From Psilocybe cubensis (Eukaryota): a stretch of DNA of 64,000 bases. The notes under the pieces were generated by a model. That model searched no databases, had not been told where the DNA came from, and worked only from the letters and a program-made list of their open reading frames with translations. Every line of letters starts with the position of its first letter. Positions within the stretch are counted from its first letter, which is position 1. Positions 11,877-52,400 of this stretch are shown here, piece by piece. The position numbers and the translations under genes were made by a program. The stretch spans positions 2,232,001-2,296,000 of the forward strand of contig CM039006.1 in assembly GCA_017499595.2 (NCBI GenBank), in the 5' to 3' direction.

Positions 11877-12024
11877 TTCGATTGAGATAATGACGGTGTG
11901 AGAAGAATGAGGAAAAGGAAGAGTGTGGGAGTATTAAAACACATCCTTGTTTGGTGGCTGTCGTGGAAAGATCCAAAATGAACATTAACGTATACACAAC
12001 TCGAGAGCTGGAATTGAAAGACAC

Positions 12025-12425
12025 TGAGTATATCATGTATACGTATTCTTTAATTCCAAGTTGGACATCCCACTCGTCGTCGTATCTCTCCATTACTTCT
12101 TTAAACATATCCAGCCAGCTTTCAAAGTCCCATTTCGCCTCGTGCGTCCGGATATAATCCCAATACTCAGGAAACCAACCTGCCATCTCCCAATCTATAA
12201 CAACCGGCCCTCCGGACTCTTGGGAGCGTACTCTACAATGCGATATGGTGAATGGGAATGACAGGGTTTTGGATTTGATGAGAGGAATTTAGCCTAAAAG
12301 GCCTGGTTGGTGTATGTTTCTGAGACGCCGGTGAAGTTTGTATTTGAAACCTTGGAAGTTGTGTAATTCTCAGATGGGGCGCGTGCTAGGACTCTCAACG
12401 TACGAAGTGTTGCCTTCTATCACTT
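12025..12425 (-). pseudogene. APH-like phosphotransferase remnant, copy 5 (internally deleted)
   Basis: C-terminal MAGWFPEYWDYIRTHEAKWDFESWLDMFKEV at ~12030-12205. Degenerate N-terminal-like sequence lies at ~12300-12425. Confidence 0.7.
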
Positions 12426-22248: not shown

Positions 22249-24080
22249 TGTTGTTGTTGAATCTGTTTATTATCGTGCAACAAGCAATCAGTGTGCTAAG
22301 ACGCACGGGTGAGTGGTGCTCACCTCTCTACGCTAAACTATCTACTAAGTATTAGTTATTGGTGTTTGTATATCTAAGGGATCATCTGTAGGTACAAATT
22401 ATTGGTGTGGGGGTCGAGTGTGGTACGCATTCAAAGAGGAGGAAGATGTAGAATATAATAGAGATGTAGATAAAGTAAAAATAAATGTAGATAAAGTCAA
22501 ATGGGGGGGATAGTAAGAATGGACAAGTAAGTTGTGGATGTTTTCAAACAAAATGATGGATTGGCATTGGGGGTTTGATACAGGTGTGTTGCCGTCTCCC
22601 GTTTGGATCACAGGTCAAGATCGGATTTGTTGTCTTTGGAGTCCGGGACTGGTTTGTTGTCAAACAATGGAGGTTTGGGTGGTAGTGGTTGGGTGCCAGA
22701 TTGAGTGTATGCCCCGGAGGCTGCGAGGAAAGATGTCAGGGCTTTAATGCCTTGGGTTGTTCCTAGGATTTCCGGTAGAAATATGTATTGGGAAGCCTGT
22801 AGTAGTTCTCTTCGCGCTTCAGTATAGCGTGGGCATTCTCGAAGAATGTGTTCTTGGGTCTGAATGTCTGCTTCACCACATGGGCAGCTGATTTCACCTT
22901 GTAGTTTGAATCGTTGGCGGAAACTGCCAATATAGCCATGATTTGTGTGGCATTGGATGATGCATCCAAATAATTCTCTAGGTTTTGAGAACCTTTGGAC
23001 GTGCTGCATGGTCGGTGTGGGAAATTTGAGGGAAGGTTGGATGCGGTTGGCGGGTGCAAAGCCACCGGTCTTGGGAGTGTTTGCCCACTCTTGTTTCCAT
23101 GCCTTTAGAATTTGCGCCTTAGCCCTTTTGAGTGCATTTGATCAAGTGACGGTGATGGGAGCAGAGCAGGCCAGTCTCATTGCTTGTTTAGCAAGTTTGT
23201 CAGCTCTCTCATTCCCGGTTATGTCCACATGGCTTGGGCACCACACAATATTTACTGTTGTATTTTTGTTGCTTTTGAGAAATTCACAAATTTTGGTGTA
23301 GAATGTGTAGGCGTAGGTTTGGGCTGATCTTGGTTTGGCATCAAAGATTGCTGACACTACTGATGTGTTGTCTGCAAAGAAATATAAGTGATGTATAGTG
23401 TTATGATTTCGAGCGAAATTGACTGCTTGAGTTGCTGCCATCATTAGGCCTGCCATTTCCCCATCATAGACTTCAGCATAGCCTCCGAGTCCCATTCAGA
23501 TTGCAAACACTTCTCTGTCAAGGTAGTATCCTACGGCGGCTCCTCCTGCTCTGGTAAATCTAATTTTGAATTTGACAAGTGATCCATCCGAGTAGACAAC
23601 TAGTGTGTCTTCTTTTTGCCCAATGTTATTGATAAGTTCCTTATGTTCTTGTATACTATCTTTATCTGAAAAAAGGTCGCAAGGTTTGATGAGTAGACAT
23701 CCATTATAAAAAGAAGGGGTACGTCTTCATGGTGGTAGTAAGAAAGAGTCTAATCTTTCATGGTGAGGTTCAGTGAATTTTGCAATTCGGCTCAAGGTTG
23801 TTGTTTTCTTTGGTCTTGATTTGGGAGATGATGGGGTGGTGGGGAGGGGTGGGGGGTTGTGGGAGCTTGGTTGTGTCTCCATGTGTTTGGTAGTCTTTGA
23901 AGAACAGCACTTGATATGCTGAGTTTGTTGAGTCTGATAGCATATCATTTGGTTAGGTGATCGAGTTGGTACTTGATTGGTGGTATTGCTGATTCGATTT
24001 TGAGGGCGGTTATTAGTGTGGTCTTAAAGACGGCACATATTAGTCTGAGGGCGCAATTTTGAACTTTTTCAAGAGGGCGT
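22249..24080 (-). mobile_element. LINE (Tad1-like non-LTR retrotransposon) 3' fragment with RNase H and C-terminal zinc finger, degenerate
   Basis: VYSDGS, AEVYDGEM, FADN and WCPSHVDITGNERADKLAK (RNase H), then CPCGEADIQTQEHILRECP. The 3' end has AATAAA followed by a (CAA)n tail at 22249-22271. It is cut by a Gypsy LTR at 24081. Confidence 0.88.
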
Positions 24081-26010
24081 TATCATACCCCAATCCTGAT
24101 TGGAGATGAGATGTTCATTTTGGATCTACACACAACACCCTCAACCCAAGCAGTCATTCTTTCCATAAGTCATCCACACATCTTATCTTATCAACACTTG
24201 TCACATGGGAGCCACGTTATTCCGGATCATGTCACTTCGTCGGATCATCAAGGCTATGCGACGGATCAGTCAACCATCAAACTGCACAGCTTTCTACACT
24301 GCTTTACACAGCCGGACTATCAACTTTATTTTTATCAATTCAATGGTCTTACTCAGCGTCAGGCTGCGGATTACTCATTCCAACTTATTTTTGGTTTGTC
24401 TTACTCATCCTTTTGTGTTTATTTATATCTTTTCTATTGTCTGTTGTGCTTTTATTGTCTTTGTCTTACCAATCTTCTATGCTTTCTGACTCATCCTTGC
24501 TTCTTTTATCTAATCTGTATTACCATTCACCTTTGTCATACACTTCTTTCTTACTCATCCTATTCATTTCTTATCTGTCGTCGTGTCAATATTGACATGT
24601 CTTATTGTTCTTGCTTATTGTTACACTTGCGTAGCCTCATTCTTGACACGTTGTACAGTATATGACTCGGTTTTCAGTAGCTCAGATTGGTATTTCGTTC
24701 ACGTAGCTTTTAGTATAAAAGCTGTAGTAGAATTACACGAAATGATAGGAAAGTTACACCCAGTCCCCACTTTCTTCAAAGCAAGTCAATTTTCATCTAA
24801 GTCAAGTCAATTTCAAGTCAATCCACATTAATTCATTTCAATTCCAAGTTCAAGTTCAAGCCAAGCCCAAACCCAAGTCCAATTCAGTCATCAGTTCCAC
24901 CCTCCGTCGAGACCAAGTTTACTTCCATTCATCCGAAGTCATCTCGCTTTCCATTAAGAGAGGATTTCATCCGAGACCAGTCATCCTTCTCATCCAACGC
25001 CTCTTCTTCTCAGCGTTGAATATCCAACTTCTATCTAGACATCCAGTACTTCCCTACTTCCCCTTCTCCATTCAATCCGTCACCGCTCCTACTCCTTCTA
25101 CACTTTCCAACCATCGCCGTTAGGAGTGTATTCAAGACATCCTTTCCCTCCGTCAACTCATCTGGAGTGATTTCATTCGAGACAGACTTAGTCTTTCACC
25201 CTCAATTCAGTCGATACTCCCGCGACGTATAGCTTCATTCCAAGCGTCAGAAAGATTGTCAATTTAAGGACACTTTCGCCTTTACCATCCGCTTATCAAG
25301 ATTCAGCCATTCAACAACATTCCAACTCCTAGTCATCTCCTCATCTCCCCTCGGAACGTTCCCCACTCACTTCAGACAACCCCTCTAAGATTTACATTTA
25401 TTGATTTCTCATACGCATTCTACGCATCTTCTTCACGCTTTCCATATACACCCGCCATCCAATTCCACGGTTCCATCCCATTTTCGGAAGGCTTATTTAC
25501 CATCGTACCCAGACGACCCGGTTATCCTCTTCTTACCATTTTGCTTTCGTTACCCTTCACAATCCATACCATCCTAATCTACTTAAATCCTAGGCAGCGT
25601 CCTCCCTTAAGAAACTTAGGAGAAGGTTTTGTCCTATCCAGTCTGGACCACTCTTTCCCTGGGGTTTGTGTTTGTTGGATTACTTATAGTTTATAACCAA
25701 TCACAAACTTCAATCTTCATCTGGAGCCCACCGCAAGGGAGGGTTAATTAGGATTTTGTATTAGGAACACAGCAATCTACCACTTTATCACTTCCATTCC
25801 TTCTATTTCGACTCTTTTTCTTTACAGATTATTTTGCTTCTCTGGTTTATTCTCTAGGCAACTCTAGGCAACTCTAGGCAACAACTCTAGGCAACACTTT
25901 CTGACTCTGTAACTGGTTTACGCTATGACTGATTCTGGCAATCCACTTCCATCCTCTGCTCCCACTATGGCTACTACTATCATCCAACGTACTCCAGTTA
26001 ATATGCCCGT
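24081..26010 (+). mobile_element. Gypsy-family 5' LTR (24081-25719), PBS, leader and start of gag, truncated by a same-family insertion
   Basis: 1639-bp LTR TATCATACCCC...CAATCTTCA, PBS TGGAGCCCACCGC at ~25722, gag start MTDSGNPLPSS at 25925. Confidence 0.9.
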
Positions 26011-27708
26011 TGAAGATCGAAGTTTGTGATTGGTTATAAACTATATGTAATCCAACAAACACAAACCCCAGGGAAAGAGTGGTCCAGACTGGATAGGACA
26101 AAACCTTCTCCTAAGTTTCTTAAGGGAGGACGCTGCCTAGGATTTAAGTAGATTAGGATGGTGTGGATTGTGAAGGGTAACGAAAGTGAAATAGTAAGAA
26201 GAGGATAACCGGGTCGTCTGGGTACGATAGTAAATAAGCCTTCCAAAAATGGGATGGAACCATGGAATTGGATGGCGGGTGTATATGGAAAGCGTGAAGA
26301 AGATGCGTAGAATGCGTATGAGAAATCAATAAATGTGAATCTTAGAGGGGTTGTCTGAAGTGAGTGGGGAACGTTCCGAGGGGAGATGAGGAGATGACTA
26401 GGAGTTGGAATGTCGTTAAATGGCTGAATCTTGATAAGCGGATGGTAAAGGCGAAAGTGTCCTTAAATTGACAATCTTTCTGACGCTTGGAATGAAGCTA
26501 TACGTCGCGGGAGTATCGACTGAATCAAGGATGAAAGACTAAGTCTGTCTCAAATGAAATTGCTCCAGATGAGTTGACGGAGGGAAAGGATGTCTTGAAT
26601 ACACTCCTACCGGCAATGGTTGGAAGGTGTAGAAGGAGTAGAAGCGGTGACGGATTGAATGGAGGAGGGGAAGTAGGGAAGTACTGGATGTCTAGATAGA
26701 AGTTGGATATTCAACGCTGAGAAGAAGAGGCGTTGGATGAGAAGGATGACTGGTCTCGGATAAAATCCTCTCTTAATGGAAAGCGAGATGACTTTGGATG
26801 AATGGAAGTAAACTTGGTCTCGACGGAGGGTGGAACTGATGACTGAATTGGACTTGAGTTTGGGCTTGGCTTGAACTTGAGCTTGGAATTGAAATGAATC
26901 GATGTGGATTGACTTGAAATTGACTTGACTTAGATGAAAATTGACTTGCTTTGAAGAAAGTGGGGACTGGGTGTAACTTTCTTATCATTTCGTGTAATTC
27001 TACTACAGCTTTTATACTAAAAGCTACGTGAACAAAATACCAATCTGAGCTACTGAAAACCGAGTCATATACTGTACAACGTGTCAAGAATGAGGCTACA
27101 CAAGTGTAACAATAAGCAAGAACAATAAGACATGTCAATATTGACACGACGACAGATAATAAATGAATAGGATGAGTAAGAAAGAAGTGTATGACGAAGA
27201 TGAATGGTAATACAGATTAGATAAAAGAAGCAAGGATGAGTCAGAAAGCATAGAAGATTGGTAAGACAAAGACAATAAAAGCGCAACAGACAATAGAAAA
27301 GATATAAATAAACACAAAAGGATGAGTAAGACAAACCAAAAATAAGTTGGAATGAGTAATCCGCAGCCTGACGCTGAGTAAGACCATTGAATTGATAAAA
27401 ATAAAGTTGACAGTCCGGCTGTGCAAGGCAGTGTAGAAAGCTGTGCAGTTTGATGGTTGACTGATCCGTTGCATAGCCTTGATGATCCGACGAAGTGACA
27501 TGATCCGGAATAACGTGGCTCCCATGTGACGAGTGTTGATAAGATAAGATGTGTGGATGACTTATGGAAAGAATGACTGCTTGGGTTGAGGGCGTTGTGT
27601 GTAGATCCAAAATGAACATCTCATCTCCAATCAGGATTGGGGTATGATATCCATTCCAAACTTGAGAAATCAACCGTCCCCGGTTGCGGAAGGAAGGGAG
27701 GGGATAGA

Positions 27709-30700
27709 TTAGAAATCGTCCATGTCGTCGCTCCATGTGTCTTCATCTTCCTCACTCTTGTGTCCAAGTTCTCTGATCATCCGGTCTAGCTGAGGTCGAG
27801 GAATGACTGAACCGTCTCGTGGAAAATAGCGAAGAAGTCGGAAAGCAGCTACGCCTTGAGCCAGTTGCGTACCATTAAGTTCTCTAAGCACATATGATCC
27901 TCCTCGTGTCTGTCGTACAACTTCGTAAGGTCCAAGATATCGTGGCTTGTGCTTGCGATTCATCTCCTTCTCAACTTGACTGTTCCTGACAAGGACTAGA
28001 TCACCAAACTTGAAGCTTTCTTGTCGAAGACGTCGAGCAAATCGTCATTCAAAAATAGCTTTGGATTGAAGTCGTGATTGTTTCAGAACGTCGGCTATGT
28101 TGGCTAAGTCTTCATCTCGTTTCATGAGTTGTCGAACACGGAGAGCTAGGAGATCTTCGGAACTCATTCCTTGTCGGAATCCATCAACTAGAAATGTGGC
28201 TTCAAGGAGATCGAATGGAAGAACAGGATGAACACCATGCATGACATAGAAAGGGGAACGTCCAGTAGAGCGTCGAGTGATGCATTTGTCGGAGAAGAGT
28301 GTGTGATGAACGTACTGTGGCCAGTCTAGAGGTCGGTCGCCGCAAGCTTTGAGAATGGATTCACGGAAGTCAATGTGACCACGTTCAATAGATCCATTGG
28401 CTTTAGAGTTGTAAGGAGAAATGCGAACTTGAGGAATGCCGTACTTTTCCATCAAAAGACTGAAAGCGCCAGAGACTTCTACTCCATTGTCCGTGCGTAC
28501 AATAGCAATAGCACCATATTGGCATATGACTTCTTCCCAAAAGAAAGTGGCCAGCTCTTTGGAACGTAAAGACTTGAGGGCACGTCCTTCAGGTGCACAT
28601 GATAAGTCGTCTCGGGCTAGGACTACGTATCGAAAGCATCCAGACTTGGGCATGTACATGACGTCGACATTGATGATAGTGAAGATAGTTGGGTGAGCTG
28701 TGATAGTGATAGGAACTTTGCTTTTCTTGGTGGATCTGATCTGACATTCATGGCAAGTAGCGAGATGATGCTTGATATCCTGAAAAAGAAATGGCCAGAA
28801 AAACCAAATGCGAATAACTCCAAACACACCGTATACTCCTCGATGTCCGAGTTCTTCATGAGCTTGAGTAAGAATGAGACGTCGCTTGTCTGGATCTAGA
28901 ATAATCAAGAGTGGAGGTCTTCCTTGTCGTCGTCGATAGAGTTGATCATCTTTGAGATAGTACTGAGTAGCGCGAGCAAGGAATCATCATCGGGACTGCA
29001 AATTGGGAAAAGGGGGTATAGTTTGGTCTGTAAGAAATTGAAGAATTTGTCAAAGTGTCCGTTCTTGAGAAGACAAAGAAGCAATAAAAGAAGGAAGCAA
29101 GATAGAGTCATACGATGGCATAGAAGAGGGAGTAAAAAGAAAAGTAGGGAAAAATTTGACCGTATTAAGAAGAGCAATATCGTCGAGCCAGTCATTGTCT
29201 TCTTGAGGTTCTTCTAACTCTTTAGAAGTTGGTTGTCGCCTTGAAAGTCCATCAGGTCCACGATGATTACCGGCCTTTACATGGATGAGCTTGAAGTCAA
29301 AGAGAAGAATGCCTTGTATCCATCGATTCATACTAGCACTCGGCTGCAAGTCAGGCTGATTGAGCATGCCTTTGATGTACTTGGCGTCGACTTCAACGTA
29401 GAGGTTCTTGACTCCAATAAGATAGAGGCGGAATTTTCGAAGAGCACGGAAAAGACCATATAACTCGAGCTTGGGCTGACTGTATCGTGCTTCTCGTGGA
29501 TTAAGTGAGATAGAACCATAGCGGACAGGTCGTCGGATGCCTTCTTTGTCAAGTTGATAGAGAATGATACCAATAGCAATGTGAGAAGTGTCCACGGCAA
29601 GAATAACTGGGCGATCGGATGAATAGTCAATAGAAGTGAGAACAGGAGGATTGGAAATGATTTCTTTGAGAGTTTGGAAAGAGTCTTCTCGTTGTTGAGT
29701 CCAGACAAAGGGTTTGTCCTTACAATAGAGTTCTGTAAGCGGTCGGACAAGGGCTGAGTAATTTCTGATCCAAACACGCATTGTTCTGCATAGACCTAGA
29801 AAGGATCGGATGTTGTGAACAGACTTTGGTTGTGGCCAATCAGTGACTTTCTGTATCTTGCTCTGATCGGGTAGTCGTCCATCCGGAGTGCATAACTGTC
29901 CAAGGATAAGAACTTCAGGCTGAGCGAGCTGAGTCTTTGGTCCAGAAAATGTAGCATCAGCACATCCCATGCAATGCATAACTCGATGAACATCTTGAGC
30001 GTGTTCCCAGACAAATTGTCGTATTCCTGGATTTTCTGGAAGTGTTTCTGGATTGCCGTCCTCGTCTAAGTACTGTGTTGGAGGGCCTTTGATAGGAACG
30101 TCATCGATAAAGACATTGGCTACGTGAGGGATCTCGTCACAAAGGATGAAGGTAGTACAGGCTTGAAATTCCGCTACTGCATTTGTATATCCCATAGGCA
30201 TTGAAGTAAGTCGAAGAGGTCCAATAGGCGACTGGAATGTGGTAAGATCTCGGCTCATAGGATGGATTTTGCGTGCGTCGTATCCCCAATATAAGTCAAA
30301 GACCGTGTAAATAGAATGACCAGCAAAGGGAACCACAAAGTCGTCAAGAACTGGAGGAACTCCTGCGTCACGATAGGAAATAGAGTTAAGAATCTGCAGA
30401 TCATGAACTAGACGGATAGCACCAGATGTCTTCTTCTTGACCCAGAAAATTGGAGAGCGATACGGAGCTTGGCTTGGTTCGTATACTCCAGCGTCTATCT
30501 TTTCACGTAAGAGACTGATAACTTGATCCTTGATGCCGGGTGGAATAGGAATATTTCGGACTACCCAGAGCTCGTGATCCTCAACAGGAAAGATGTATGG
30601 AGAGAAGTATTCTTCAGAAAATGTTCCACGTTCGGACTGATGAAAAGCGAGTGAGCGTTCATTGAGTTTAAGAATATGAAGGAAAAGCTTTTCTTCTTCC

Positions 30701-30900
30701 GGCCATAGGAATTTGTTGGCGTTAATGTTCATTGATTGTATGCGTTCAAGAGTGAGTCTGGTCGTTGGTGTAAAGGCAGGGGGATGGAGTGGGAGAGGTG
30801 GGAGAGATAATAAGGGATCAACAGGAATTTGTTGTATAACTTTGGCCGATTCGGGAGTAACCCGATTTATAGGTCTAACTTTCCGATCGACTTGTTTATA
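27709..30900 (-). pseudogene. Gypsy pol: reverse transcriptase, RNase H, integrase
   Basis: RT (LVHDLQILN, FDLYWGYD, MPMGYTNA, FIDD), RNase H (VDTS, LELYGL, VDAK), integrase zinc finger (HEELGH...CHEC) and core (TDNG, SIERGH), GPY motif. Stops at 29050 and 28045, frameshift at ~28910. Confidence 0.9.
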
Positions 30901-31794
30901 GGCTGTATTGGTAGAAGTGGGGGAAAGAATAGGTTATATGAATTGATTCATGGAGGCTCGGAAGGTTGATAGTGTCGATCCTGACGCGGCAGTGAATACA
31001 AAACCAATTGTAGGAGAGCTTGACAACCTTGCCGAATTAGTTCGGTTGACGGTGGGTTTAGCAGTAATATCTGAATTGAGTAACCATGATCTCGCATAAA
31101 TGCTTTGATCTATCCAAAATTTCTGTAGGTCTTGACCCATCAGAGGTAATGGGGTGGTCGTCCTTCTTATCTTGTCCGTAAGCTTGATTTTTCGCTCTTT
31201 GTGGATAAGATGAAGCCCTTCCCAATTCTGTAGGAGTTTGAGGTGTATTGGAGGCATGATTGTGGTGTATATTGGAGATAGAGATTCCGTATAGCATTCC
31301 ATTGGGAGGTTGCATGTGTTCCTCCAAGAACTCTGCAATAGGCGACCTGAGGATTCGTTTGCAGACTGAAGTGGTGAAGCAGGGGTGGAACAAATAAATA
31401 AAAGGGAGGAATAAATAAAGGTTAGTTTAACAACTTTTCGGTCGACGTACATACAAATGGATAAAGTGGAAAGAAAATGAAAATAAAAGGTAAAGGAAAA
31501 GGTTGTATGGCGTGGAGTTGCCATTGAGAGTGTGAATGTGAGGAAAAGGCGCATAAAAGAAAAGTGGAGGCGTTCAAAAACTCGTTGCACAAATGAAAAA
31601 TCTACATAAGTGTCCGTGACATGGAAAAGAGAAACGCAAAATGTGGAAATAAAATGGGAGGTGGGATAAAGGCATAACGATGAGGAAGAAGAAACACCAG
31701 CAACAGCAAAGGTGACAAAGAAAAATTGAGGGGATTGGAGAACAAAGAGAGGGCATTGAGGAAGCAAGCTGATGTCCATGCACCGTCCAGATAG

Positions 31795-34700
31795 TCAGTA
31801 CAATGTGTTGGCATCCAAGGGATATTCTTCTGTGTTGTCGATACCAAAGGGACTTTCTTCTCCATACTGATAGTACCATTCGTTTCTATCGTCCATATTT
31901 GAAGCTTGCGATTCGTGCATTGTGCTGGTTATGGGAAGAGGTAAAAGGGAAGAATTGTGGTCAACCTCTTTGCCATTTTGGGCGATTCGTAGCTCTTCTT
32001 CATCCTCGTTTAATGGCTTCTTCGGACTGTCGTGGGCTACTCGCAGAGGATGTACCAAAGCTTTTGGGCCTTGATGATGCTCGTCTATATTTGCGGTGAC
32101 CGTCGATGATACACGTGTTTCTTGTTGAATCATAATCGAAAGAGGTGTTTCTGGAAGAGCAGAACTTCGGGAATGAGGTTGGGAAATAGAAGAAGCGTTT
32201 TGAGAGCGAATGGATTGGGGAATAAAATGAGTCCAGGATGCTGAGTGACGTTGGCCCATTGGATAGGCACTGACTGAAGCAGAGTGGTTAGATTGAGACG
32301 AGATACCAGTGCGACTGAAGTGTAGAATAGTTGGAGTTGTCGTCAAATTTATATGAGTGTCTCTCTGCGGATAAACATAATGAACAAAGGCCGTTCCTGT
32401 CCGGTCAGAAACAACACAAGTAGGAGAAGAATAAGTGGCGTCGTATAGGATCCAATCTTCAAAGCGCAAGTGGGGGTTGAGCATTCCCATAGCCGTAAGG
32501 TGAGTATTGTCAGAAGAGAATTGAATAGCTTCTACTTTAGGTGAGCTCAATTGTTCCATTTCTGGATCGTCATCAGCTGGTTCTTCTTCATGTGGGTCGT
32601 TACTGTCTGAAGTGTGGGATTTGATGGACGGATTGACAGATGGTGATGGTGGCTGTTCTATTTGTGGGGCTTCATGTGTGGAATCATAAGGTGGTGTAGA
32701 AATATGACCATAATGGGCTGTCGCATTGAATTGAGAAGTTCCCGAGTCATCTTGATACATTGAGTCATAATCGGAAGCGTAGAGACCGTGAGAGGAGTCC
32801 TGAGTCGAGTCATGTTCGCAGTTGGAGTCAGAGAAAGAGGGTGCATCTTGTGAAGTGGATAAGTCCTCATTTGGGTTAGCAGATTCGTCCCGATTCAGAG
32901 ATTGTTGCCTAGTAAGGATAGATAACTCGATCATGGAAGGGGTAGGTGATGGATAGCGAAGGTCGTCCAATAATTCACCGGGTTCTAGATCTTCTTCAAT
33001 TTCACCTTCTTCGGCATCTGGATTAGCTAAGGAGAGGTTGTTGTGTACTAACATTGTGTGGGGGGTCTTGTCGTAAATGGTATCCGTGAAGTAACGCCGG
33101 TCGTGCTGAGTATTGGGTGTCACAAGGAATTTCTGCTCACATGTAGGATCTTTGACGTCATAGAAGGCAATGAAAGTCCCTTCGGGTCGTTCTAGAATGT
33201 CCACATAGTTGTCACGGGTCCATGGACGTCCCAAGAGTATATCAAACTGGACTTTGTCGAATACATAGCAATGAGCACGCGTCCTGACTGTACCAATATC
33301 AAGTTGAACATTTCCAACAAATCCAAGCATGTGGGATTTGCCGCCATGAATATCGACCATAACAATAGTATTCCGGCTGTCCATCGGCAACCTGACAATC
33401 TTCTTCCAAGCCTGTTCGCTTAGAATGTTCTGCGTAGATCCACTGTCAATCAAGGCATTGAGTTCGTGACCATTACACATTAATGTGATTCGAAGAAGGA
33501 GCTCGTGAGCGCGAAGGGATTCGACTAAATTGGTCTCGTGCATGTATTGAACAGGTACGTCCTTTTCGGCACTGCGAATGATGTCTAGAACCTCCTTATC
33601 GGAAAGCTTTAAGTTGCCGTTTGCCAATGAAGCTTTGAATTCGTCGACAGTAAGGGTCTTGCCTTTGATGCTGTTGATAAGAAGGGTCCTAAGGTCCTTT
33701 GAAACTCCAAGTAACTCGCCGAACGTTGCATTAACGGATTGATTAAGGCATCGTCTGAGAATGGCCATAGTGTCGACAGTTTGGGATATGTCAGAGACAC
33801 GTTTCTGAGGCGCTGCACGTGGCTTGGTAACTGATTTGCCTCGTTCTAGACTAGGAGTGACATCTTCCATGATTTGATCATCATCGGCCGGATCAAAAAC
33901 CTCGTGTCGTTGCGCAGTCTCGGGATGTTCCGTTGGATTTGCCCTAATTGGGACATTGGATTGAGCTTGTTTGATAGGAATTGATGGATTCATTTCAGCA
34001 GAAGGTTGATTAATTGACGGAATTGGGACAGGTTGAATGGAAGTGGAGCTAGGCACGTTGTTCGGCAATCCAGAGTTAGCTGGACGTTTAAGAATAGATG
34101 GGATCTGAGAAGAATCCTTAGCTTTACTCATTTCCGCTTGCTTTCCTTTGAGATACGCGGGTTCCGGAGGTACCACAGCGTCCATGACCTGTTTGCGTGC
34201 AGCACGTGTTCGCTTTTCAGTTGGGATTCGATTACCAGGACCTGCCAGCGTAAACTCAAACTCGTCTTCTCCATCCCAGGTTCCAATATTGTCCTCTTCT
34301 TCTTCTGCGACCATGGCTCTGTAGTTCTTGAACATCTGACCATAATATGCTTTGGATACAGCTATGCTTGTGGTAGCGACTTGAGGAGGAGGAGGAGGAG
34401 GCTGTTGTTGACGAAGGACTGCTTGTGCAATTGACTCTCCATTCTGGCGAATAATACGGGATCCATCAGGGAAGACAACTCGATTGCTACTGTCTCTGGA
34501 GATGAGCTTGCGGTTCGTAAGATCAATAAGTGTTGGGCAGTTGTTGATTCCATGGCCTTGTTGGTGGCAACCATAGTAGATGATCTCGGATGCGGACTGA
34601 CGTGGTGCTCGTGGTGCTGGAGGTGCTGTCTGACTTGCACTTGGGACTGGCTGAGCTGGCTGTGCACTTTGATTCATAATGGCCGGAGCAATGAGCATGT

Positions 34701-35676
34701 TAGCAAGAGCGGGTTCCAACTTGATGGCGCAAAGATAGTAAATGGCGTACGAAGAATCATGGATGGTGAGCTTCGACATCTGCTTGATCAAGTTCTCCAC
34801 TTCGTCGTCCTTGTGTGCTTGCTTTTCTTCCTTGTCTAGATCCTGAAAGATGCACTTGGTCTCTTCCGGGGGATTGTATGGACGTTCACGGGCATCGCGC
34901 GTCTCGATGTTAGGAAACATCTCCTATAAGTACTTCTTGATCTCGTCAAAGACTGATGAGCGCTCTGGATACAAATCCTTTGGAGGAATAAGAGACGTGA
35001 AGGGGCGTGCAGAAGGATTGTCAAAGATTCCAACATCAAAGCGGTCTTGTTTGAAGATGATTTCAACTGCCTTGGTGACGTCTTCAATGGAAAAAGGTGA
35101 GGAGAGATCGATATGAGGATTAAAGACCATGATCTTGCTTTCGAGCGCAGGTCGGAGGGATTCATTGATTCCTAGCCAGAAGTATTGATTGTATTCCGTC
35201 TTGGATATCTTGTTGTTGTTGAGAAGCCAACCAGCGATGCAAATGTATTGCTTCTGATACTCGCGGAAGTCGTCGAGAGAGCGCATAGAAAGATTGGAGT
35301 GTTGGAAAGCATAAGCACAAAGAGTACTCAACGTGAACTTCTGCGTCGTCCTAGCATGGTCAAAGATCTTGAGCATATCAGTCTTGAGTCGTTCCCATTG
35401 CTTGGCATGATGGCTGGGTAAACCTTCAATGATTTCTCTGCTCTCTTGGTTGCAGCATTAAACCATGTATCGTACTTTGTCATTGTCGAGAGTGACATTG
35501 TACTGATCAAAAATGCGGTCGCAGTGATCCAAAAAGTTCTTGACGTCGACATAAGATCCAGTGAATTTTGGAGCAGCACTAGATTTAGGAACGGGCATAT
35601 CAACTGGAGTACGTTGGATGATAGTAGTAGCCATAGTGGGAGCAGAGGATGGAAGTGGATTGCCAGAATCAGTCAT
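31795..35676 (-). pseudogene. Gypsy gag-protease ORF with long C-terminal extension
   Basis: MPVPKSSAAPKF gag start, degenerate CCHC (YYGCHQQGHGINNC), protease ALIDSGS...ILLGRPW. In-frame stops at 35458 and 34924. Confidence 0.85.
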
Positions 35677-36010
35677 AGCGTAAACCAGTTACAGAGTCAG
35701 AAAGTGTTGCCTAGAATTGTTGCCTAGAGTTGCCTAGAGTTGCCTAGAGAATAAACCAGAGAAGCGAAATAACCTGTAAAGAAAAAGAGTCGAAATGGAT
35801 GGAATGGAAGTGATAAAGTGGTAGATTGCTGTGTTCCTAATACAAAATCCTAATTAACCCTCCCTCGCGAGACCGAATGGATTACTGTGTCCGCGCGTCC
35901 GCCGGACATCCGCCGGACAGACTCACGTGACTACCTCGTCACGTCGCGTCTCAATGTACATGGCGCGCGCTCTCGCGCGCTTTGTATATATACTCAACAA
36001 CCCTAAAAGC

Positions 36011-36122
36011 TAATCCCTAACCCCTAATCCCTAACCCATAATCCCTAACCCCTAATCCCTAACCCATAATCCCTAACCCCTAATCCCTAACCCATAATCC
36101 CTAACCCCTAATCCCTAACCCC
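36011..36122. repeat. Telomere-like tandem repeat (TAATCCCTAACCCM)8
   Basis: Eight 14-bp CCCTAA-containing units, mostly alternating C/A at the last base. Degenerate CCTAA units continue to ~36195. Confidence 0.92.
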
Positions 36123-36224
36123 TACACCCAACCCTAAACTACCTAATCCAAACCCTAAACTACCTAATCTAATTAATTAATTAATCCAACCCTAAAAAAT
36201 AAAACAAACTGCTAAAATATGTCA

Positions 36225-36673
36225 AGCACTGGAGTGGTGAGATTGAAACTAATAATTCCACCACTGCAGTGGTATAAGTTATGTAGACAATTTCACCACT
36301 TCAGTGGTACAAATCATGTGCACTGTTCTAGCACTTGAGTGATATAAGATACATTCTAAATGTTACCACTCCAGTGGTGTAGAAATTATAAAAGTAGCAA
36401 TAATTACTATTCTTAGCATTGTATTTATTCTATCTGACACACAACTATGACCACTGCAGTGGTGGAATACAACAAGTCAATTTCAGCACTGAAGTGGCAA
36501 ACTCCAACATATTAATTTCACCACTTCAGTGCTGATATTAACTTGCTACATTCCACCACTGAAGTGGTCATACTTACATGCTGTACTTGATCACTGGAGT
36601 GATCAAATTTACATGTCAGATTTGACCACTTCAGTGGTGAAAACTAACATGTCAATTTCACCACCGCGGTGGT
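36225..36673. repeat. Array of twelve 14-bp palindromes ACCACTnnAGTGGT on a 35-bp period
   Basis: Repeat starts at 36225, 36260, 36295, 36330, 36365, 36450, 36485, 36520, 36555, 36590, 36625 and 36660. Spacers are 21 bp, except one of 71 bp. Confidence 0.92.
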
Positions 36674-39600
36674 CACGTGAATCACGTGCTGTCCGCCGGA
36701 CGGAGTGTCCGGCGGAAATTATGATTATATTAATCCATTCTATCTGTCCCTCGCAGTGGGCTCCAGATGAAGATCGAAGTTTGTGATTGGTTATAAACTA
36801 TATGTAATCCAACAAACACAAACCCCAGGGAAAGAGTGGTCCAGACTGGATAGGACAAAACCTTCTCCTAAGTTTCTTAAGGGAGGACGCTGCCTAGGAT
36901 TTAAGTAGATTAGGATGGTGTGGATTGTGAAGGGTAACGAAAGTGAAATAGTAAGAAGAGGATAACTGGGTCGTCTGGGTACAATAGTAAATAAGCCTTC
37001 CAAAAATGGGATAGAACCGTGGAATTGGATGGCGGGTGTATATGGAAAGCGTGAAGAAGATGCGTAAAATGCGTATGAGAAATCAATAAATGTGAATCTT
37101 AGAGGGGTTGTCTGAAGTGAGTGGGGAACGTTCCGAGGGGAGATGAGGAGATGACTAGGAGTTGGAATGTTGTTGAATGGCTGAATCTTGATAAGCGGAT
37201 GGTAAAGGCGAAAGTGTCCTTAAATTGACAATCTTTCTGACGCTTGGAATGAAGCTATACGTCGCGGGAGTATCGACTGAATCGAGGGTGAAAGACTAAG
37301 TCTGTCTCGAATGAAATCACTCCAGATGAGTTGACGGAGGGAAAGGATGTCTTGAATACACTCCTAACGGCGATGGTTGGAAAGTGTAGAAGGAGTAGGA
37401 GCGGTGACGGATTGAATGGAGGAGGGGAAGTACTGGATGTCTGGATAGAAGTTGGATATTCAACGCTGAGAAGAAGAGGCGTTGGATGAGAAGGATGACT
37501 GGTCTCGGATGAAATCCTCTCTTAATGGAAAGCGAGATGACTTCGGATGAATGGAAGTAAACTTGGTCTCGACGGAGGGTGGAACTGATGACTGAATTGG
37601 ACTTGGGTTTGGGCTTGGCTTGAACTTGAACTTGGAATTGAAATGAATCAATGTGGATTGACTTGAAATTGACTTGACTTGGATGAAAATTGACTTGCTT
37701 TGAAGAAAGTGGGGACTGGGTGTAACTTTCCTGTCATTTTGTGTAATTCTACTACAGCTTTTATACTAAAAGCTACGTGAACGAAATACCAATCTGAGCT
37801 ACTGAAAACCGAGTCATATACTGTACAACGTGTCAAGAATGAGGCTACGCAAGTGTAACAATAAGCAAGAACAATAAGACATGTCAATATCGACATAACG
37901 ACAGATAAGAAATGAATAGGATGAGTAAGAAAGAAGTGTATGACGAAGGTGAATGGTAATACAGATTAGATAAAAGAAGCAAGGATGAGTCAGAAAGCAT
38001 AGAAGATTGGTAAGACAAAGACAATAAAAGCGCAACAGACAATAGAAAAGATATAAATAAACACAAAAGGATGAGTAAGACAAACCAAAAATAAGTTAGA
38101 ATGAGTAATCCGCAGCCTGATGCTGAGTAAGACCATTGAATTGATAAAAATAAAGTTGATAGTCCGGCTGTGTAAGGCAGTGTAGAAAGCTGTGCAGTTT
38201 GATGGTTGACTGATCCGTCGCATAGCCTTGATGATCCGACGAAGTGACATGATCCGGAATAACGTGGCTCCCATGTGACAAGTGTTGATAAGATAAGATG
38301 TGTGGATGACTTATGGAAAGAATGACTGCTTGGGTTGAGGGCGTCATGTGTAGATCCAAAATGAACATCTCATCTCCAATCAGGATTGGGGTATGATAAC
38401 GAGGCTGGCTGTAGACGCCCCCGACGCTGGTTTGATGGGAATTGCATGACGTACTCGGGACGGATTTCACAATGGGATGGACCGCCAAGGCGTTGGTCAT
38501 CATCTTGGAACGAGAATCCTGACTCGCCATTACAGTTGTTGTTGTGAAGTGAGTTAGAAAGAGTGTTGGAGGTCCTTTTGTCGCGTGTGGACTGGGATAC
38601 TTCAGTCAATCTCTGATTGCCGTCCGAGTTAATAATGGGTGAATGTTGAGTTGGGACATTGGTCATGATATTTTTTAATGAGACAACTAAAGTTGACGAT
38701 AAAGCACGAGCTTTCTTTGATAGAAGTTATATTTTTTGTTGCTCGAGTAGTTGTGCTCAAAATGTGATGTTCGCGATGTGAAAGAGCTTGCAACATTGAC
38801 TGTTTCCGTCTTATAAGTATTTTATTGGGTGAGACAGTCTTTGCCCATGCCGCTTGGGGCCGGAGACAGTTATAGAGGAATTCCTCGAGACACACGGTCT
38901 GAGGAGAATGAGTATTTCTTGTGACGCTTGGCCTAAGGGAATGTCATAAATATTGCTATTCACATTTCTGCGCGGTAGTTCTTTGGCATTCCTCATTGGA
39001 CTATTGTAACATTTTTCTTTAAACTCGACCATAAAATCAACCTATCTTCTTGGGTCATGAGAATATAATCATGTGACTTGTCTATTTTGATATCAGAAAA
39101 TAGATTATAAGTTTGCAATAAAACCTACTAGCTATAGAATATGCACAAATGTCCCAATTCACTGCATTTGTTGTCTATCTACACTTGTAAGGTGGGCTAG
39201 TACTTATACATGATATGTATAAAGCCTTAGCCTTCATTGTTATTGATTGTTATAAAACCTGAATATTAATTCTATATAAAGTAGAATTAATAATATATAT
39301 CCTCTAAATAGTATTGATAATAGCAGTTCATTTAATAACCTCCTAAACATCACCATTAATGACTATTAAGATGGTTATTTTAAAGATTAGTAAAACTTTT
39401 AAATTATGCATATAAATAACAAAGCTAGTATAAAAAATCCTTGTTAAAATGTGACAGTCCAGAATTGAACTCATATTTTGATAAATCAATGATAAACACA
39501 AATAAAATGCATAGCCAACTATATTACACTGCAATAAAAAAAACTACACATTGTTGCATATTGTAGTTTCATAATGCACTATCTACAGACCAAAAAAAAA

Positions 39601-46330: not shown

Positions 46331-46608
46331 GAGTTGATGCTGGTGTAATGAAAGACCTCAAGGCATTGGCAAAATGGTTAAAACTTAATAGCAACAAGTA
46401 CAAAAGGATAGATAGCTTATCGGACGTGTCACGCATTTCCATTTTTGGGAAGTGAGAATTGTTCCCATCAGCCATCATATTTGAGATTGCCATCATTTGA
46501 ATAATTCCTACGGAATTATTGTTACCGGACAGACTCTTATAATGATTACTGAGTCCTGTTCCTACCTAGGCAAAAACCTTTCAGATCCTTTTCAAAACAA
46601 TAATCCGC

Positions 46609-48868
46609 TATCATACCCCAATCCTGATTGGAGATGAGATGTTCATTTTGGATCTACACACGACACCCTCAACCCAAGCAGTCATTCTTTCCATAAGTCA
46701 TCCACTCATCTTATCTTATCAACACTCGTCACATGGGAGCCACATTATTCCGGATCATGTCAATTTGTCGGATCATCAAGGCTATGCAACGGATTAGTCA
46801 ACCATCAAACTGCACAGCTTTCTACACTGCCTTGCATAGCCGGACTGTCAACTCTATTTTTATCAACTCAATGGTCTTACTCAGCGTCAGACTGCGGATT
46901 ACTCATCTTATCTTATTTTTGGTTTGTCTTACTCATCCTTTTGTGTTTATTTATATCTTTTCTATTGTCTGTTGCGCTTTTATTGTCTTTGTCTTACCAA
47001 TCTTCTATGCTTTTTGACTCATCCTTGCTTCTTTTATCTAATCTGTATTACCATTCACCTTCGTCATACACTTCTTTCTTACTCATCCTATTCATTTCTT
47101 ATCTGTCGTCATGTTGATATTGACATGTCTTATTGTTCTTGCTTATTGTTACACTTGCGTAGCCTCATTCTTGACACTTTGTACAGTATATGACTCGGTT
47201 TTTAGTAGCTCAGATTGGTATTTTGTTCATGTAACTTTTAGTATAAAAGCTATAGTAGAATTACATAAAATGACAGGAAAGTTACACCCAGTCTCCACTT
47301 TCTTCAAAGCAAGTCAATTTTCATCCAAGTCAGGTCAATTTCAAATCAATCCACATTGATTCATTCCAATTCCAAGCCCAAGCCCAAGCCCAATCCCAAG
47401 TCCAAGTCTAATTCAGTCATTAGTTCCACCCTCCGACAAGACCCAGTTTACTTCCATTCATCCAAAATCATCTTGCCTTCCATTGACAGAGGATTTTATC
47501 CAAGACCAGTCCTCCTTTTCCTCCAATGCTTCTTCTTCCCAGCGTTGATCATCCCACGTCTATCCAGACTTCCAGTACTTCCTACTTCCTCTCCCCCATC
47601 CAATCTGTCACCGCTCCTACTCTTTCTATACCTTCCAACCATCGCTGTTAGGAGTGGATCCAAGACTTTCTTTCCCTCCGTCAACTCATCTGGAGCGATT
47701 TCATTCGAGACAGACTTAGTCTTTCATCCTCGATTCAGTCAATACTCTCGCAACGTATAGCTTCATTCCAAGCTTCAGAAAGATTGTCAATTTAAGGACA
47801 CTTTCACCTTCACCATCCTTTGCTTCTCTGGTTTATTTTCTAGGCAACTCTAGGCAACAACTCTAGGCAACACTTTCTGACTCTGTAACTGGTTTACGCT
47901 ATGACCAATTCTGGCAATCCGCTTCCATCCTCTACTCCCACTATGGCTACCACCATCATCCAACATACTCCTGTCAATATGCCCATTCCTAAATCTAGTG
48001 CTGCTCCAAAATTCACTAGATCCTATGTCGATGTCAAGAACTTTTTGGATCACTGCGACCGCATTTTTGATCAGTACAATGTCACTCTCGACAATGACAA
48101 AGTACGATACATGGTTTAATGCTGCAACCAAGAGAGCAGAGAAATCATTGAAGGTTTACCCAGCCATCATGCCAAGCAATGGGAACGACTCAAGACTGAT
48201 ATGCTCAAGATCTTTGACTATGCTAGGACAACACAGAAGTTCATGTTGAGTACTCTTCGTGCTTACGCTTTCCAACACTCCAATCTTTCTATGCGCTCTC
48301 TCAACGACTTCCGCGAGTATCAGAAGCAATACATTTGCATCGCTGGTTGGCTTCTCAACAACAACAAGATATCCAAGACGGAATACAATCAATACTTCTG
48401 GCTAGGAATCAATGAATCCCTCCGACCTGCACTCAAAAGCAAGATTATGGTCTTTAATCCTCATATCGACCTCTCCTCACCTTTTTCTATTGAAGACGTT
48501 ACCAAGGCAGTTAAAATCATCTTCAAACAAGACCGCTTTGATGTTGAAATCCTTGACAATCCCTCTGCACGCCCCTTCACATCTCTTATTCCCCCAAAGA
48601 ATTCGTATCCTGAACATTCATCAGTCTTCGACAAGATCAAGAAGTACTTACAGGAGATGTTTCCTAACATCGAGACGTGCGATGCTTGTGAACGTCCATA
48701 CAATCCCCCGGAAGAGACCAAGCACATCTTTCAGGATCTAGAAAAGGAAGAGAAGCAAGCGCACAAGGACAACAAAGTGGAGAACTTGATCAAGCAGATG
48801 TCGAAGCTCACCATCCATGATTTTTTGTACGCCATTTACTATCTTTGCGCCATCAAGTTGGAACCCAC
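46609..48868 (+). mobile_element. Gypsy-family fragment: 3'-deleted LTR fused to leader and gag N-terminal half
   Basis: TATCATACCCC start. The LTR jumps at ~47818 to leader sequence, so the LTR end and PBS are missing. gag runs 47901-48868. Confidence 0.88.
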
Positions 48869-49487: not shown

Positions 49488-52400
49488 AAGTTGAAAAGAC
49501 GAAGTTAAACTAGCCTAATTTAAAAGGGTTACTTTTAACTAGAAATAACTCGGGGATTAGGCGACGGGGGCCCCCTCAACCGAGGTTAACAAGTCGCGTA
49601 AGGCGTGCTCGTTCAACCCTACTAGCAGCGGCAATGTATGGCCGGGCCTGGTAGAGGATAAAAAGCAAAAAAGACTAAAATGACCGTTTTGTGAAACTAT
49701 GCAGAAAGCAACTTGGTTCGCAAAACACGGAATTGGAGCGCTTAGAGCGCGGGGCCCATAACCTGTTGAAGCAGGCGAGCTCGGGGCAGTGTGAGCTACT
49801 CGGCGACCTAGTTATAGAACGTAGGGCGCAGGGATAAGCGAGCACGAAGCGTCTGAAGTCCGAAGTGTATGACATGATTTTCCGTTGAAAATGTGAAGTC
49901 CCTGAGACTCGTTTATGGTGAGTATAAAAATAGCAAGTTGAATATTGTAGTACGTACAATTGATGCAGGTTTTGTAACTAGGTACGTAGTTGATAGCGCT
50001 TGCACAATGGATTGTAGTACGTACTCTGCTGTGGTCGTACTGTAGCCCTGGTTTATTTTGTTCATTACCTTGGTTTTTTCTGTCAGAATTTATAAGCTCT
50101 ACACGCTAACAAGCGCATGTGCCAAATATTGTGTTATTTCTATATAAATTGAAACTCACTGTTAGAAATCCTTCCTCTCCAGTGCGTCTCGGGATTCTCT
50201 GCTCCCTTGGCTTCAAAAAATTGGTGTATATGTATTGGCAAGACACTTGGCAAAGCACAAATTCCAATAACAGGCCTTGCCGTGGATGGGCCGAAATAGA
50301 GTCAGGACAATTTTGAGAAACTCTGTGATAATTTTTAGAGTAATTATCCACAAAGATAGAAGGATTTTTCCGGGGCAATACCAAGGAGTGCACCTTGAAA
50401 ACCATGATCGCACCACGACACACGTCACTGTGTACTAAGCATTGTGCTATATTTAACTTGGTAGCTTGTTTCTCATTGTTTGGGTCCTCGTTAACTACCT
50501 ATTATGATGTACAAAAAGGCCGGATACTTATGAGTACAGCTGAGATTCTGAATGTTCGAATTTTCAACGGAAAATTGTGTCATAGAAGTGAGTAACTGGG
50601 TGAATTGAGCAAAGTGCTAACAAACTAACCTGAAGTCCTAAGTGAGTAACTGGGGACTTCAGGATGTAAACTAGAGTGACTATATACTGTGTAGACTCAA
50701 GTATTCTGGTCTACCTAGGTCTACTCTGGTCCGGTCCAGACCAGTCTATGGACTAATAAATATCATGTGTCTAGAATGGTCTGGAGAGCAAATGAAGATA
50801 AGAAGAAAGTAATCTAATCTGATAAGATAGCAAAGTGAGGGAGACATAGAGAGCAGTTTTAACACTCCTCCCTGTTCTGACAAGTCTCCAGAACAAAGAA
50901 AAATAACGCAAAACAGAGAAAGAAAGATTAAAGTTTGAGACCCATTTTATCTCTACAAAAGTCCACTTTGGGAGGTGAGAGGGGTTTGGTGAGAATATCA
51001 GCAGCTTGCTGATCAGTAGGAATATAAGAAGGAGAAATCTTTCTAACACCAACAGCATCCCTAAGCCAATAATAGCGCAAATCAAGGTGTTTCATCCATC
51101 CATGGTACTCTGGATTCTTGGAAACACTGATAGATGACTGGTTGTCCATATACAGTACAGAGAGCTCAGTGACTGTGTAGCCAAACTCCTCAAGGATATT
51201 GCACATCCACACAATTTCCTTGGCTGCCTCCACTGCAGCAATATACTCTGCCTCAGTAGTAGACAGAATTACAACAGTTTGGAGTTTGCTTGCCCAGCCA
51301 ATAGCACCTCCAGCTAGAACGGTCAAATAACCACTCGTAGAGCGTCCAGTATCTACACAATCACTATGTGCAGCATCAGTGTAGGTGACAAAGTTATCAT
51401 GGCCCACAGCCCCAGAATAAGTCAACTTGTAATCCAGAGTGCCTCTGAGGTAGCGGAATAAATGTTTAACTGCAGCCCAATGCTTAGGCCCAGGATTGGA
51501 GTTGAAGCGTGCCAGATAGGACACAGTAAAAGCAATGTCAGGACGGGTCATGGTGGCTAGATACTGCAAGGAGCCAACTGCATTGAGGTAGGGAACATTT
51601 CACATAAATTCCACCTCATCTCCATTCTGAGGTCCATCTGCCTTGGACAGAACAGTGCCCACAGCCATAGGTGTTTTGACCGGATTAGAATCAGTCATGC
51701 CATATGTATCAAGCATATCGAGGATATACTGACGCTGATGCAAGGAAATGGTTTTAGCAGCCATATCTCGCTCAATGGCAACACCAAGTAAATACTGTGT
51801 AGGACCCAGATCACGGAGTTCAAAACGCGCAGCTAGCTGCTTAACAGCTCTATCTATGGCAGCGTCCGATTTGGAGGCAAAGGTAATGTCATCAATGTAA
51901 ATGGGAACAATAATCTTCACATCTCCATCTGAATAGATGTAGACAGAGCGATCTGATTCTATACGCTTGAACCCCATATCTGACAATGCCTCATGCAACT
52001 TGAGGTTCCATTGACGTGCAGACTGCTTAAGACCATAGAGCGACTTTTTGAGCTTCAAAATCATGTTAGGACCACCTTACTGAAATCCTTCGGGTTGTAA
52101 CATGTAAATCTCCTTGTCCAGGACACCTTTAGTGAAAGCAGCTGTAATATCAACAGAGCGCAACTTCAAGTCCCCAATGGCGGCCAGAGCCACAATCAAG
52201 CGGAAAGTAGCAGGGCAGAAAGTAGGAGCAAAGACCTCATGGTAATCAATGCTAGGGCGCTGACTGTAGCCCTTGGCAACAATACGAGCCTTATAGCCCT
52301 CTATACTGCCATCTGCATTTCGCTTGATTTTAAAGACCCAACCACAGCCAATTGCCTTTTGACCCGGAGGGAGCTCAACTCGCTCCCAAGTTTGGTTGTG

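Follow-up and report, generated by a model that had tools for sequence, protein, structure and literature searches.

A periodic array of twelve palindromes inside a small non-autonomous DNA transposon inserted into a fungal retroelement

The locus and its surroundings

We analysed a window of 64,000 bases, that is, the whole stretch of DNA considered here. This DNA is eukaryotic and contains many retroelements. A Pfam scan of its 149 open frames of at least 100 aa identified domains of Ty3/Gypsy and Copia elements, and also an intron-split ornithine carbamoyltransferase, several APH-type kinases and a COP9 subunit. The named relatives of two window proteins are all from Agaricomycetes, at only 60-65% identity. 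No DNA-transposase, hAT, cas-like or TnpB-like domain was observed in any of the 149 open frames. For cas-like domains this agrees with the first-pass annotation, made from the letters of the sequence, which had recognised no cas, tas or other nuclease gene nearby.

The locus of interest lies in a Ty3/Gypsy element, whose gag-protease, RT/RNase H and integrase are encoded on the minus strand. The LTRs of this element, at 26006-27649 and about 36763-38401, are 97.3% identical. The LTR retroelement and the sites that define the insertion are as follows.

26006..38401, minus strand: host Ty3/Gypsy LTR retroelement, from Pfam domains and repeat pairs
25732..25740, minus strand: empty paralogous target site TCCCTTGCG, the 9 nt by which two flank alignments overlap
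35861..35869, plus strand: left target-site duplication TCCCTCGCG, from the flank alignment
36747..36755, plus strand: right target-site duplication TCCCTCGCA, from the flank alignment

The transposon insertion

The non-coding stretch 35869/35870-36746, of 877 or 878 bp, is an insertion. The sequences flanking it recur in inverted orientation and without interruption at 25680-25800. The left flank aligns at 68 of 69 positions to the reverse complement of 25732-25800, and the right flank at 57 of 61 positions to the reverse complement of 25680-25740. Exactly 9 nt (25732-25740) are common to both alignments, which sets the boundaries of the insertion. The empty target site is in another copy of the same retroelement sequence, and the insertion point is 16 bp inside the 5' LTR boundary of the Gypsy element. 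The two copies of the target duplication have one G/A difference. The length of the duplication is 8 bp if the last G of TCCCTCGCG (35869) is counted with the element, and 9 bp if it is not. The target resembles a primer-binding site, and no matching tRNA gene was found in the window.

The empty paralogous site and the target duplication prove the insertion of a non-autonomous DNA transposon of class II, with terminal inverted repeats (TIRs). Thus the earlier suggestion that the palindromes lie inside a small DNA transposon holds. The ends of the element are organised as follows.

35870..35945: left end module
35870..35884, plus strand: left terminal inverted repeat, starting at 35869 if the duplication is of 8 bp
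35897..35918, plus strand: GC-rich near-palindromic motifs GTCCGCCGGAC and ATCCGCCGGAC, adjacent and subterminal, common to the right end
35922..35945, plus strand: CACGTG, followed by a degenerate version of the outermost palindrome of the array and by a second CACGT, from the end-to-end alignment
36672..36746: right end module
36672..36690, plus strand: two CACGTG motifs abutting the last palindrome, from the motif count
36691..36717, plus strand: right-end GC-rich motifs GTCCGCCGGAC and GTCCGGCGGAA, from the motif scan
36731..36746, minus strand: right terminal inverted repeat, reading CAGATAGAATGGATTA on this strand, from the comparison of the ends

If the element starts at 35869 and the duplication is therefore of 8 bp, the termini align without a gap and match at 13 of 16 positions. 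The terminal 16-mer taken alone is not significant, as it has two matches and at least two are obtained in 25 of 100 shuffles. The ends are homologous over some 70-80 nt, with a local alignment score of 27 against 8.4 +/- 1.4 in 300 shuffles (maximum 13.5). Past about 80 nt the homology is not significant, since 321 of 500 shuffles do equally well. From either tip inwards one finds, in the same order, the terminal repeat, two GC-rich near-palindromic 11-mers, CACGTG and the first array palindrome. The latter is degenerate on the left end, where ACTACCTCG is the counterpart of ACCACCGCG on the right.

The element has no coding capacity: there are stops in all six frames over its 877 nt. A 97-aa open frame that crosses the array (36493-36783) has no true homologue; a word-based protein search gave no candidate, and in a representative library it gave two weak matches to unrelated repetitive proteins, with E = 1.9e-05 and 8e-04. 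The 64-kb window contains a single copy of the element and no further element end, the GC-rich 8-mer occurring once outside the element in an unrelated context. The 877-bp sequence has no match in plasmid or phage collections.

Structure of the palindrome array

Between the end modules, the element is filled by repeats of several kinds.

35963..35980, no strand: GC-only inverted repeat with 7-bp arms and a 4-nt centre, read from the sequence
36001..36200, plus strand: telomere-repeat-like array with the 14-bp unit CTAATCCCTAACCC, filling the left half of the element
36225..36378, no strand: block 1 of the palindrome array, five cores with a 35-bp period, from the core scan
36427..36436, plus strand: internal second copy of the right terminus, ATTCTATCTG, a 10-mer found twice in the window, both times in the element
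36450..36673, no strand: block 2 of the palindrome array, seven cores with a 35-bp period, from the core scan

The first-pass annotation described twelve palindromes in two blocks of five and seven. A mismatch scan of the whole window bears this out. There are twelve ACCACTNNAGTGGT palindromes at 36225-36673, with an exact period of 35 bp within each block. Allowing up to three mismatches in the 12 specified positions, the scan of 64,000 bases gave 31 matches. Twelve of these have at most two mismatches and form the array, starting at 36225, 36260, 36295, 36330 and 36365 (block 1) and at 36450, 36485, 36520, 36555, 36590, 36625 and 36660 (block 2); the other 19 have three mismatches each and are scattered through the window. 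No further units with up to two mismatches were found in the gap between the blocks, to the left of block 1 or in the rest of the window. The core-to-core spacings are four times 35 bp, then 85 bp, then six times 35 bp. Since 85 bp is 2 x 35 + 15, the two blocks are out of register by 15 bp.

The exact consensus is present in six of the twelve cores, and in eight all six arm pairs are complementary. As had been claimed for one variant, changes in both arms may leave a core fully paired: this is the case for ATCACTGGAGTGAT at 36590 and likewise for ACCACCGCGGTGGT at 36660. Unpaired changes are present in four cores (36225, 36330, 36485 and 36520). Positions 1, 3-5 and 10-12 are invariant in all twelve units (CAC...GTG), and the two central bases vary freely. 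Tandem Repeats Finder, run on 35000-38000 with a minimum score of 30, produced 14 rows, none of them with period 35, which shows that the units are strongly diverged outside the core. A repeat search recovered a 50-nt unit in eight copies at multiples of 35.

Several other motifs are concentrated in the element. Observed and expected counts are 15 and 1.6 for CCACT, 3 and 0.07 for CACGTG, 4 and 0.01 for CCGCCGGA, and 16 and 0.14 for CCCTAA. The GC-rich motif has six strand-matches with at most one mismatch, all within the element, where 0.36 are expected; none of 100 shuffles reaches six. In the telomere-like array all CCCTAA copies have the same orientation, and Tandem Repeats Finder reports period 14, 8.2 copies and 94% matches at 36010-36124.

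The right arm looks partly duplicated, array and terminus together, as judged from the internal second copy of the right terminus. This copy, which is degenerate, ends 58 bp past the last core of block 1, compared with 73 bp for the true terminus. The outermost palindrome (36660-36673) belongs to the terminal module common to both ends of the element. Judged by its position there and by the similar distance of the second terminus, the array and the terminus act as one module.

Origin of the linkers

All linkers within the blocks, called spacers in the first-pass annotation, are 21 nt long. The mean pairwise identity is 0.81 for the cores and 0.39 for the linkers. Nevertheless, the linkers are related to each other. 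In the forward orientation they have on average 8.2 of 21 positions in common, against 6.0 +/- 0.26 in shuffles, and none of 500 shuffles reaches the observed value. When one linker of a pair is reverse-complemented, the average is 8.3 of 21, against 5.9 in shuffles (standard deviation about 0.25). Identity of the linkers to their own consensus is 62%, whereas shuffled linkers give 49 +/- 2% (maximum 55%, n=300).

The consensus of the linkers is self-complementary at 16 of 20 positions. For single linkers the number is 6-12 of 20, with a mean of 8.6, compared with 5.9 +/- 0.9 in shuffles; the observed mean is reached by 4 of 1000 shuffles. A second, weaker palindrome alternating with the first had been proposed from several of the linkers. 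It is recognisable in the consensus; the single linkers retain it only weakly.

The linkers of block 2 fall into two orientation classes. S6, S7 and S11 are mutually alike in the forward orientation (14-16 of 21 positions). S8, S9 and S10 resemble these three better as reverse complements (11-16 of 21) than directly (6-9 of 21); for S6 and S8 the values are 16 and 9 of 21, respectively. Block 2 also contains an inverted duplication, 36443-36497 against 36521-36575, with arms of 55 nt that are 87% complementary. Core 8 is the reverse complement of core 7, down to an asymmetric change. The two orientation classes together with the inverted duplication indicate that the array grew by inverted and direct duplication in a 35-bp register. 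Thus the 21-bp linkers are near-saturated copies, in both orientations, of one partly palindromic 21-mer.

Constraint and age

The contrast between cores and linkers noted in the first-pass annotation is confirmed: identity to the consensus is 93% for the cores, far above the 62% of the linkers. The differences between the linkers and their consensus comprise 27 transitions and 53 transversions, which is near saturation. The retroelement paralogs in the window differ by 2-3%, mostly by transitions (e.g. 39:7 and 30:1). Between the flanks of the insertion and the empty paralog the difference is only about 1-7%, and thus the divergence of the linkers is older than the insertion. It follows that the array was already diverged when it was mobilised, and that its lineage was still mobile during the time in which the cores were conserved. 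There is evidence of constraint on the core sequence. Constraint on palindromy is weakly indicated: among the four cores with two changes, two are still perfect palindromes (P = 0.005 if any base is allowed, 0.044 for transitions only).

Fixed linker length had been taken as a sign of selection. This does not hold after calibration by five LTR paralogs from the window, which have about 0.025 indel events per substitution. For the approximately 80-110 substitutions in the linkers, 2-2.75 indels are expected, and the probability of observing none is 0.06-0.14. At such a low indel rate the exact linker length, and with it the period, is not significant.

According to the first-pass annotation, an ordinary decayed minisatellite would consist of units going back to one ancestral 35-mer, with cores and linkers equally diverged. 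The units indeed align to one ancestral 35-mer. However, cores and linkers diverged unequally, and the units occur in both orientations, so that the array is not an ordinary decayed minisatellite.

Possible function of the array

The first-pass annotation proposed a binding platform for a dimeric protein. This is still the best of the readings considered, and one that we hold tentatively. By analogy with foldback-type Mutator, hAT and P elements, it is quite possible that the array consists of multimerised binding sites for a dimeric transposase or an accessory protein. In favour of this are the mobility of the element, the link of the array to the ends, the sequence-specific conservation and the symmetry of the cores, the age of the array, and precedents in other transposons. 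On this reading the element would be a non-autonomous cut-and-paste transposon of the Mutator/hAT type, as judged from the length of the target duplication, and the array its right arm, which is internally repetitive. The 14-bp palindrome with its invariant CAC...GTG and free central dinucleotide is a putative site for a dimer of the DNA-binding domain of the transposase or of the accessory protein. With multiplied sites, a multimeric transposase could find and pair the ends with greater avidity and specificity, which would lead to more frequent mobilisation. The 21-bp linkers, which stem from a single, partly palindromic ancestor of 21 bp, would be filler under no constraint, and the direct and inverted duplications in the 35-bp register may have been helped by the palindromic cores. 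We infer that the cores are read by a protein, probably the transposase, and that their number may affect transposition.

Several observations argue against transposase sites. The array is on one arm only: twelve cores with at most two mismatches are in the right arm and none in the left, which has at most a degenerate half-site and carries the telomere-like array instead. The GC-rich 11-mers and CACGTG, which are truly common to both ends, are at least as good candidates for transposase sites. The array spans the region from 73 bp to 520 bp from the terminus, and is thus deeper than most known subterminal sites. A distance of 35 bp is about 3.3 helical turns, so by simple arithmetic neighbouring sites are on different faces of the helix. 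The 15-bp shift in register between the blocks and the non-significance of the constant linker length count against this reading as well.

If the transposase or an accessory protein does bind the palindromes, the element would illustrate in compact form, and in a fungus, the multiplication of sites by which non-autonomous transposons compete for transposase, and the invariant positions of the core would directly predict the recognition sequence. A more far-reaching version seems improbable to us, namely that this is a new end architecture in which palindromes with a 35-bp period, three sites per ten helical turns, on one arm are read by a putative palindrome-binding protein of Agaricomycete transposons. 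In this version the palindromes and the telomere-repeat, CACGTG and GC-rich clusters would make up a mobile cassette of protein sites, which by recruiting host chromatin or telomere factors would help the element to persist or move. Such an architecture requires selection on both core sequence and spacing, and in addition a dedicated reader protein.

Alternative explanations

The array might be a functionless internal minisatellite, in which a 35-bp palindromic unit was amplified by slippage and template switching, and the cores were conserved by hairpin-primed or foldback synthesis and correction within palindromes, with no protein reading them. Common ancestry of the units agrees with this, as do the inverted and direct duplications (S6 against S8, and the 55-nt arms with 87% complementarity), the reverse-complement copies at cores 7 and 8 with their asymmetric change, and the confinement of the array to one arm; a constant period needs no selection. 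However, correction within a hairpin maintains pairing between the arms of one palindrome, but not identity among twelve separate palindromes, and CAC...GTG is unchanged in all 12 units although the linkers are near saturation. Unequal exchange would homogenise whole 35-bp units rather than 14 bp of each. We regard a functionless repeat as rather unlikely. It is unlikely that the palindromes are sites of a putative host DNA-binding protein. In this case they would form, with the telomere-like, CACGTG and GC-rich motifs, a mobile cluster of sites for host factors, with effects on chromatin, on transcription or on the position of the element or its neighbours in the nucleus. In general, free-centred palindromic sites such as these are a mark of dimeric factors. 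Four short motifs are each strongly over-represented in the 877 bp. On the other hand, the core motif with at most two mismatches occurs only in the element and has no tie to genes in the window, and the insertion is in a retroelement rather than in a promoter.

Action as RNA is improbable, be it by read-through hairpins diced into small RNAs, silencing of the transposon family or microRNA-like regulation. The whole of block 2 folds at -111.1 kcal/mol, compared with -53.4 +/- 4.7 in shuffled sequences (z = -12.4, none of 200 as good), and for block 1 z = -5.6. However, twelve palindromes that are all complementary to each other necessarily produce such strong folds. For single 35-nt units the folding energy is -2.6 to -10.1 kcal/mol, with z below -2 in only one of twelve, which speaks against the earlier idea of a precursor of hairpin RNAs of about 35 nt. 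Moreover, the stems conserve sequence and not pairing alone. An Rfam search with E <=1 gave 14 sub-threshold matches, 12 of them to models of microRNA precursors; all 14 are below the gathering score, and the best has 38 bits against the 59 required. The outward look of the array, with short conserved palindromes and variable spacers of equal length, is all that favours a CRISPR-like adaptive array with spacers from invaders, and the probability of this is negligible. The CRISPR-like framing fails because all spacers go back to one ancestral 21-mer, of which they are diverged copies in either orientation. A search for their targets was suggested in the first-pass annotation; the best matches elsewhere in the window have 14-17 of 21 positions, the same as for 60 shuffled controls. 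The host is a eukaryote, a cas-like or TnpB-like domain is present in none of the 149 open frames, and the entire array moved as transposon cargo. The analogy is therefore rejected. Thus no function in adaptive immunity is needed for a periodic array of palindromes with equally long, variable spacers to arise in a eukaryote, and the array is a caution for repeat-based scans.

Comparison with known systems

With the palindromes read as binding sites of a transposase or an accessory protein, the element fits a known transposon design with multiplied subterminal sites and opens no new kind of system. Three features set it apart from its known kin: the design of the unit, the confinement of the array to one side, and the telomere-like array on the opposite arm.

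A close layout is that of Muta1 from Aedes aegypti, which makes duplications of 8-9 bp and has a palindromic terminal motif and nine 12-bp subterminal repeats (PMC5499845). A non-autonomous copy has three and seven repeats on its two ends (PMC5499845). A larger number of repeats leads to more transposase binding and excision, and palindromy matters for binding (PMC5499845). Like Muta1, the element described here has a duplication of 8 or 9 bp and a terminal motif with many short repeats separated by linkers, and like its non-autonomous derivatives it has unequal numbers of repeats on its two ends. However, the 12-bp repeats of Muta1 have linkers of 3-4 bp, adjoin the terminus and are present on both arms (PMC5499845), whereas here a 14-bp palindrome alternates with a 21-bp linker, starting 73 bp from the terminus and essentially on one arm. 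Foldback-type Mutator-like elements have target duplications of 8-10 bp (PMC5499845). The length of 8 or 9 bp observed here fits, but the two arms do not carry the same repeats. Since this foldback feature is absent and no transposase domain was found in the open frames of the window, we assign the element to no superfamily.

In Galileo, a member of the P superfamily from Drosophila, binding sites of the THAP domain lie inside tandem repeats of the long ends (PMC3688188). Tetris, also from Drosophila, has 8-10-bp duplications, no open reading frame, and internal tandem repeats derived from the terminal region (PMC4079207). The element resembles Galileo and Tetris/Foldback in having an internally repetitive arm with repeats from a duplicated terminal region, and in these elements secondary THAP sites lie hundreds of base pairs from the tip (PMC3688188, PMC4079207). 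The repeats of Galileo and Tetris are about 140-220 bp long and occur on each of the long inverted arms, in contrast to the 35-bp unit and the asymmetric arms found here.

In Hermes, a hAT element, a palindromic subterminal pair is bound cooperatively by two BED domains, the subterminal sites are asymmetric between the ends, and phasing is critical (PMC10368747). The similarities are the short terminal inverted repeats, the possible 8-bp duplication (8 or 9 bp here), and the many short subterminal sites with a different layout at each end (PMC10368747). The sites of Hermes, however, are irregularly scattered 4-nt motifs (PMC10368747), unlike the 14-bp palindromes of the present array with their regular 35-bp period. 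In fungi, duplications of 8 bp are described for the superfamilies hAT and Zisupton and duplications of 7 bp for Kyakuja (PMC12730594). The core and terminal strings occur in no paper of the library searched, and searches there on basidiomycete foldback, MITE or Mutator arrays turned up no comparable element.

CRISPR arrays share with the locus partly palindromic short repeats that alternate with variable spacers of equal length. They are unlike it in that here the host is a eukaryote, the conserved core has 14 bp, the spacers are mutually homologous and stand in both orientations, associated genes are absent, and the array is borne by a transposon. A search of 185,579 bacterial and archaeal genomes for three successive cores with a 35-bp period found only four loci, all cyanobacterial, which are intergenic 35-bp tandem repeats in Hormoscilla and Coleofasciculus genome bins. 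They have in common with the array the 35-bp period and a palindromic core of the CACTNNAGTG type. However, these bacterial repeats consist, in the two of the four loci that were read, of near-identical head-to-tail units with different flanks, and we consider them unrelated chance look-alikes.

Insertion site and internal structure of the transposon

The target of the transposon that carries the palindrome array (36748-36765), read on the plus strand, resembles a tRNA 3' end terminating in CCA. On the strand of the host Ty3/Gypsy retroelement, the same target is a primer-binding-site-like sequence adjoining the 5' LTR. Thus the transposon seems to have landed in the putative primer-binding site of the retroelement. 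No tRNA gene for comparison with the tRNA-like target was found within the 64,000-nt window. Several further features were observed in the transposon and immediately to its left.

Features in and beside the transposon (window coordinates)
35705-35749: short tandem repeat GTTGCCTAGA, about three copies, in the retroelement leader immediately left of the insertion
36001-36200: telomere-repeat-like array with the 14-bp unit CTAATCCCTAACCC, in the left half of the transposon
36427-36436: internal sequence of the transposon, identical to the final 10 nt of its right terminus (the right terminal inverted repeat)

The motif CCCTAA occurs 16 times in the transposon against 0.14 expected, always in the same orientation. 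The internal copy of the terminus, which lies 58 bp past block 1 (the first five palindromic cores), suggests that the right arm was partially duplicated or that two elements were fused.

Similar arrays in cyanobacteria

Intergenic tandem arrays with the palindromic core GCACTTTAGTGC were found in genome bins of Hormoscilla and Coleofasciculus, at loci (L001-L004) judged to be chance look-alikes. They have the same 35-bp period as the transposon array. The units of the cyanobacterial arrays are near-identical, as seen in L001 and L004 (positions 1990-2130 of each); L002 and L003 are pattern matches.

Other genes and retroelements of the window

Features outside the insertion (window coordinates)
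5626-12206: four paralogous genes or gene fragments for APH-type phosphotransferases, clustered in tandem
14025-16322: open frame of 766 aa within GC-rich DNA (0.59 GC)
24078-25724, 26006-27649, 36763-38401, 46606-47990, 59574-61185: five copies of one LTR of about 1.6 kb, 83-98% identical
49488-59576: two Copia-type elements, head to head, forming a large inverted duplication (98-100% identity)

The 766-aa open frame has no Pfam match. The Copia-type duplication is exemplified by the pair 51096-53853 and 56819-59576. Differences among the five LTR copies are predominantly transitions, many of them at CpG, and indels are very rare (about 0.025 per substitution).
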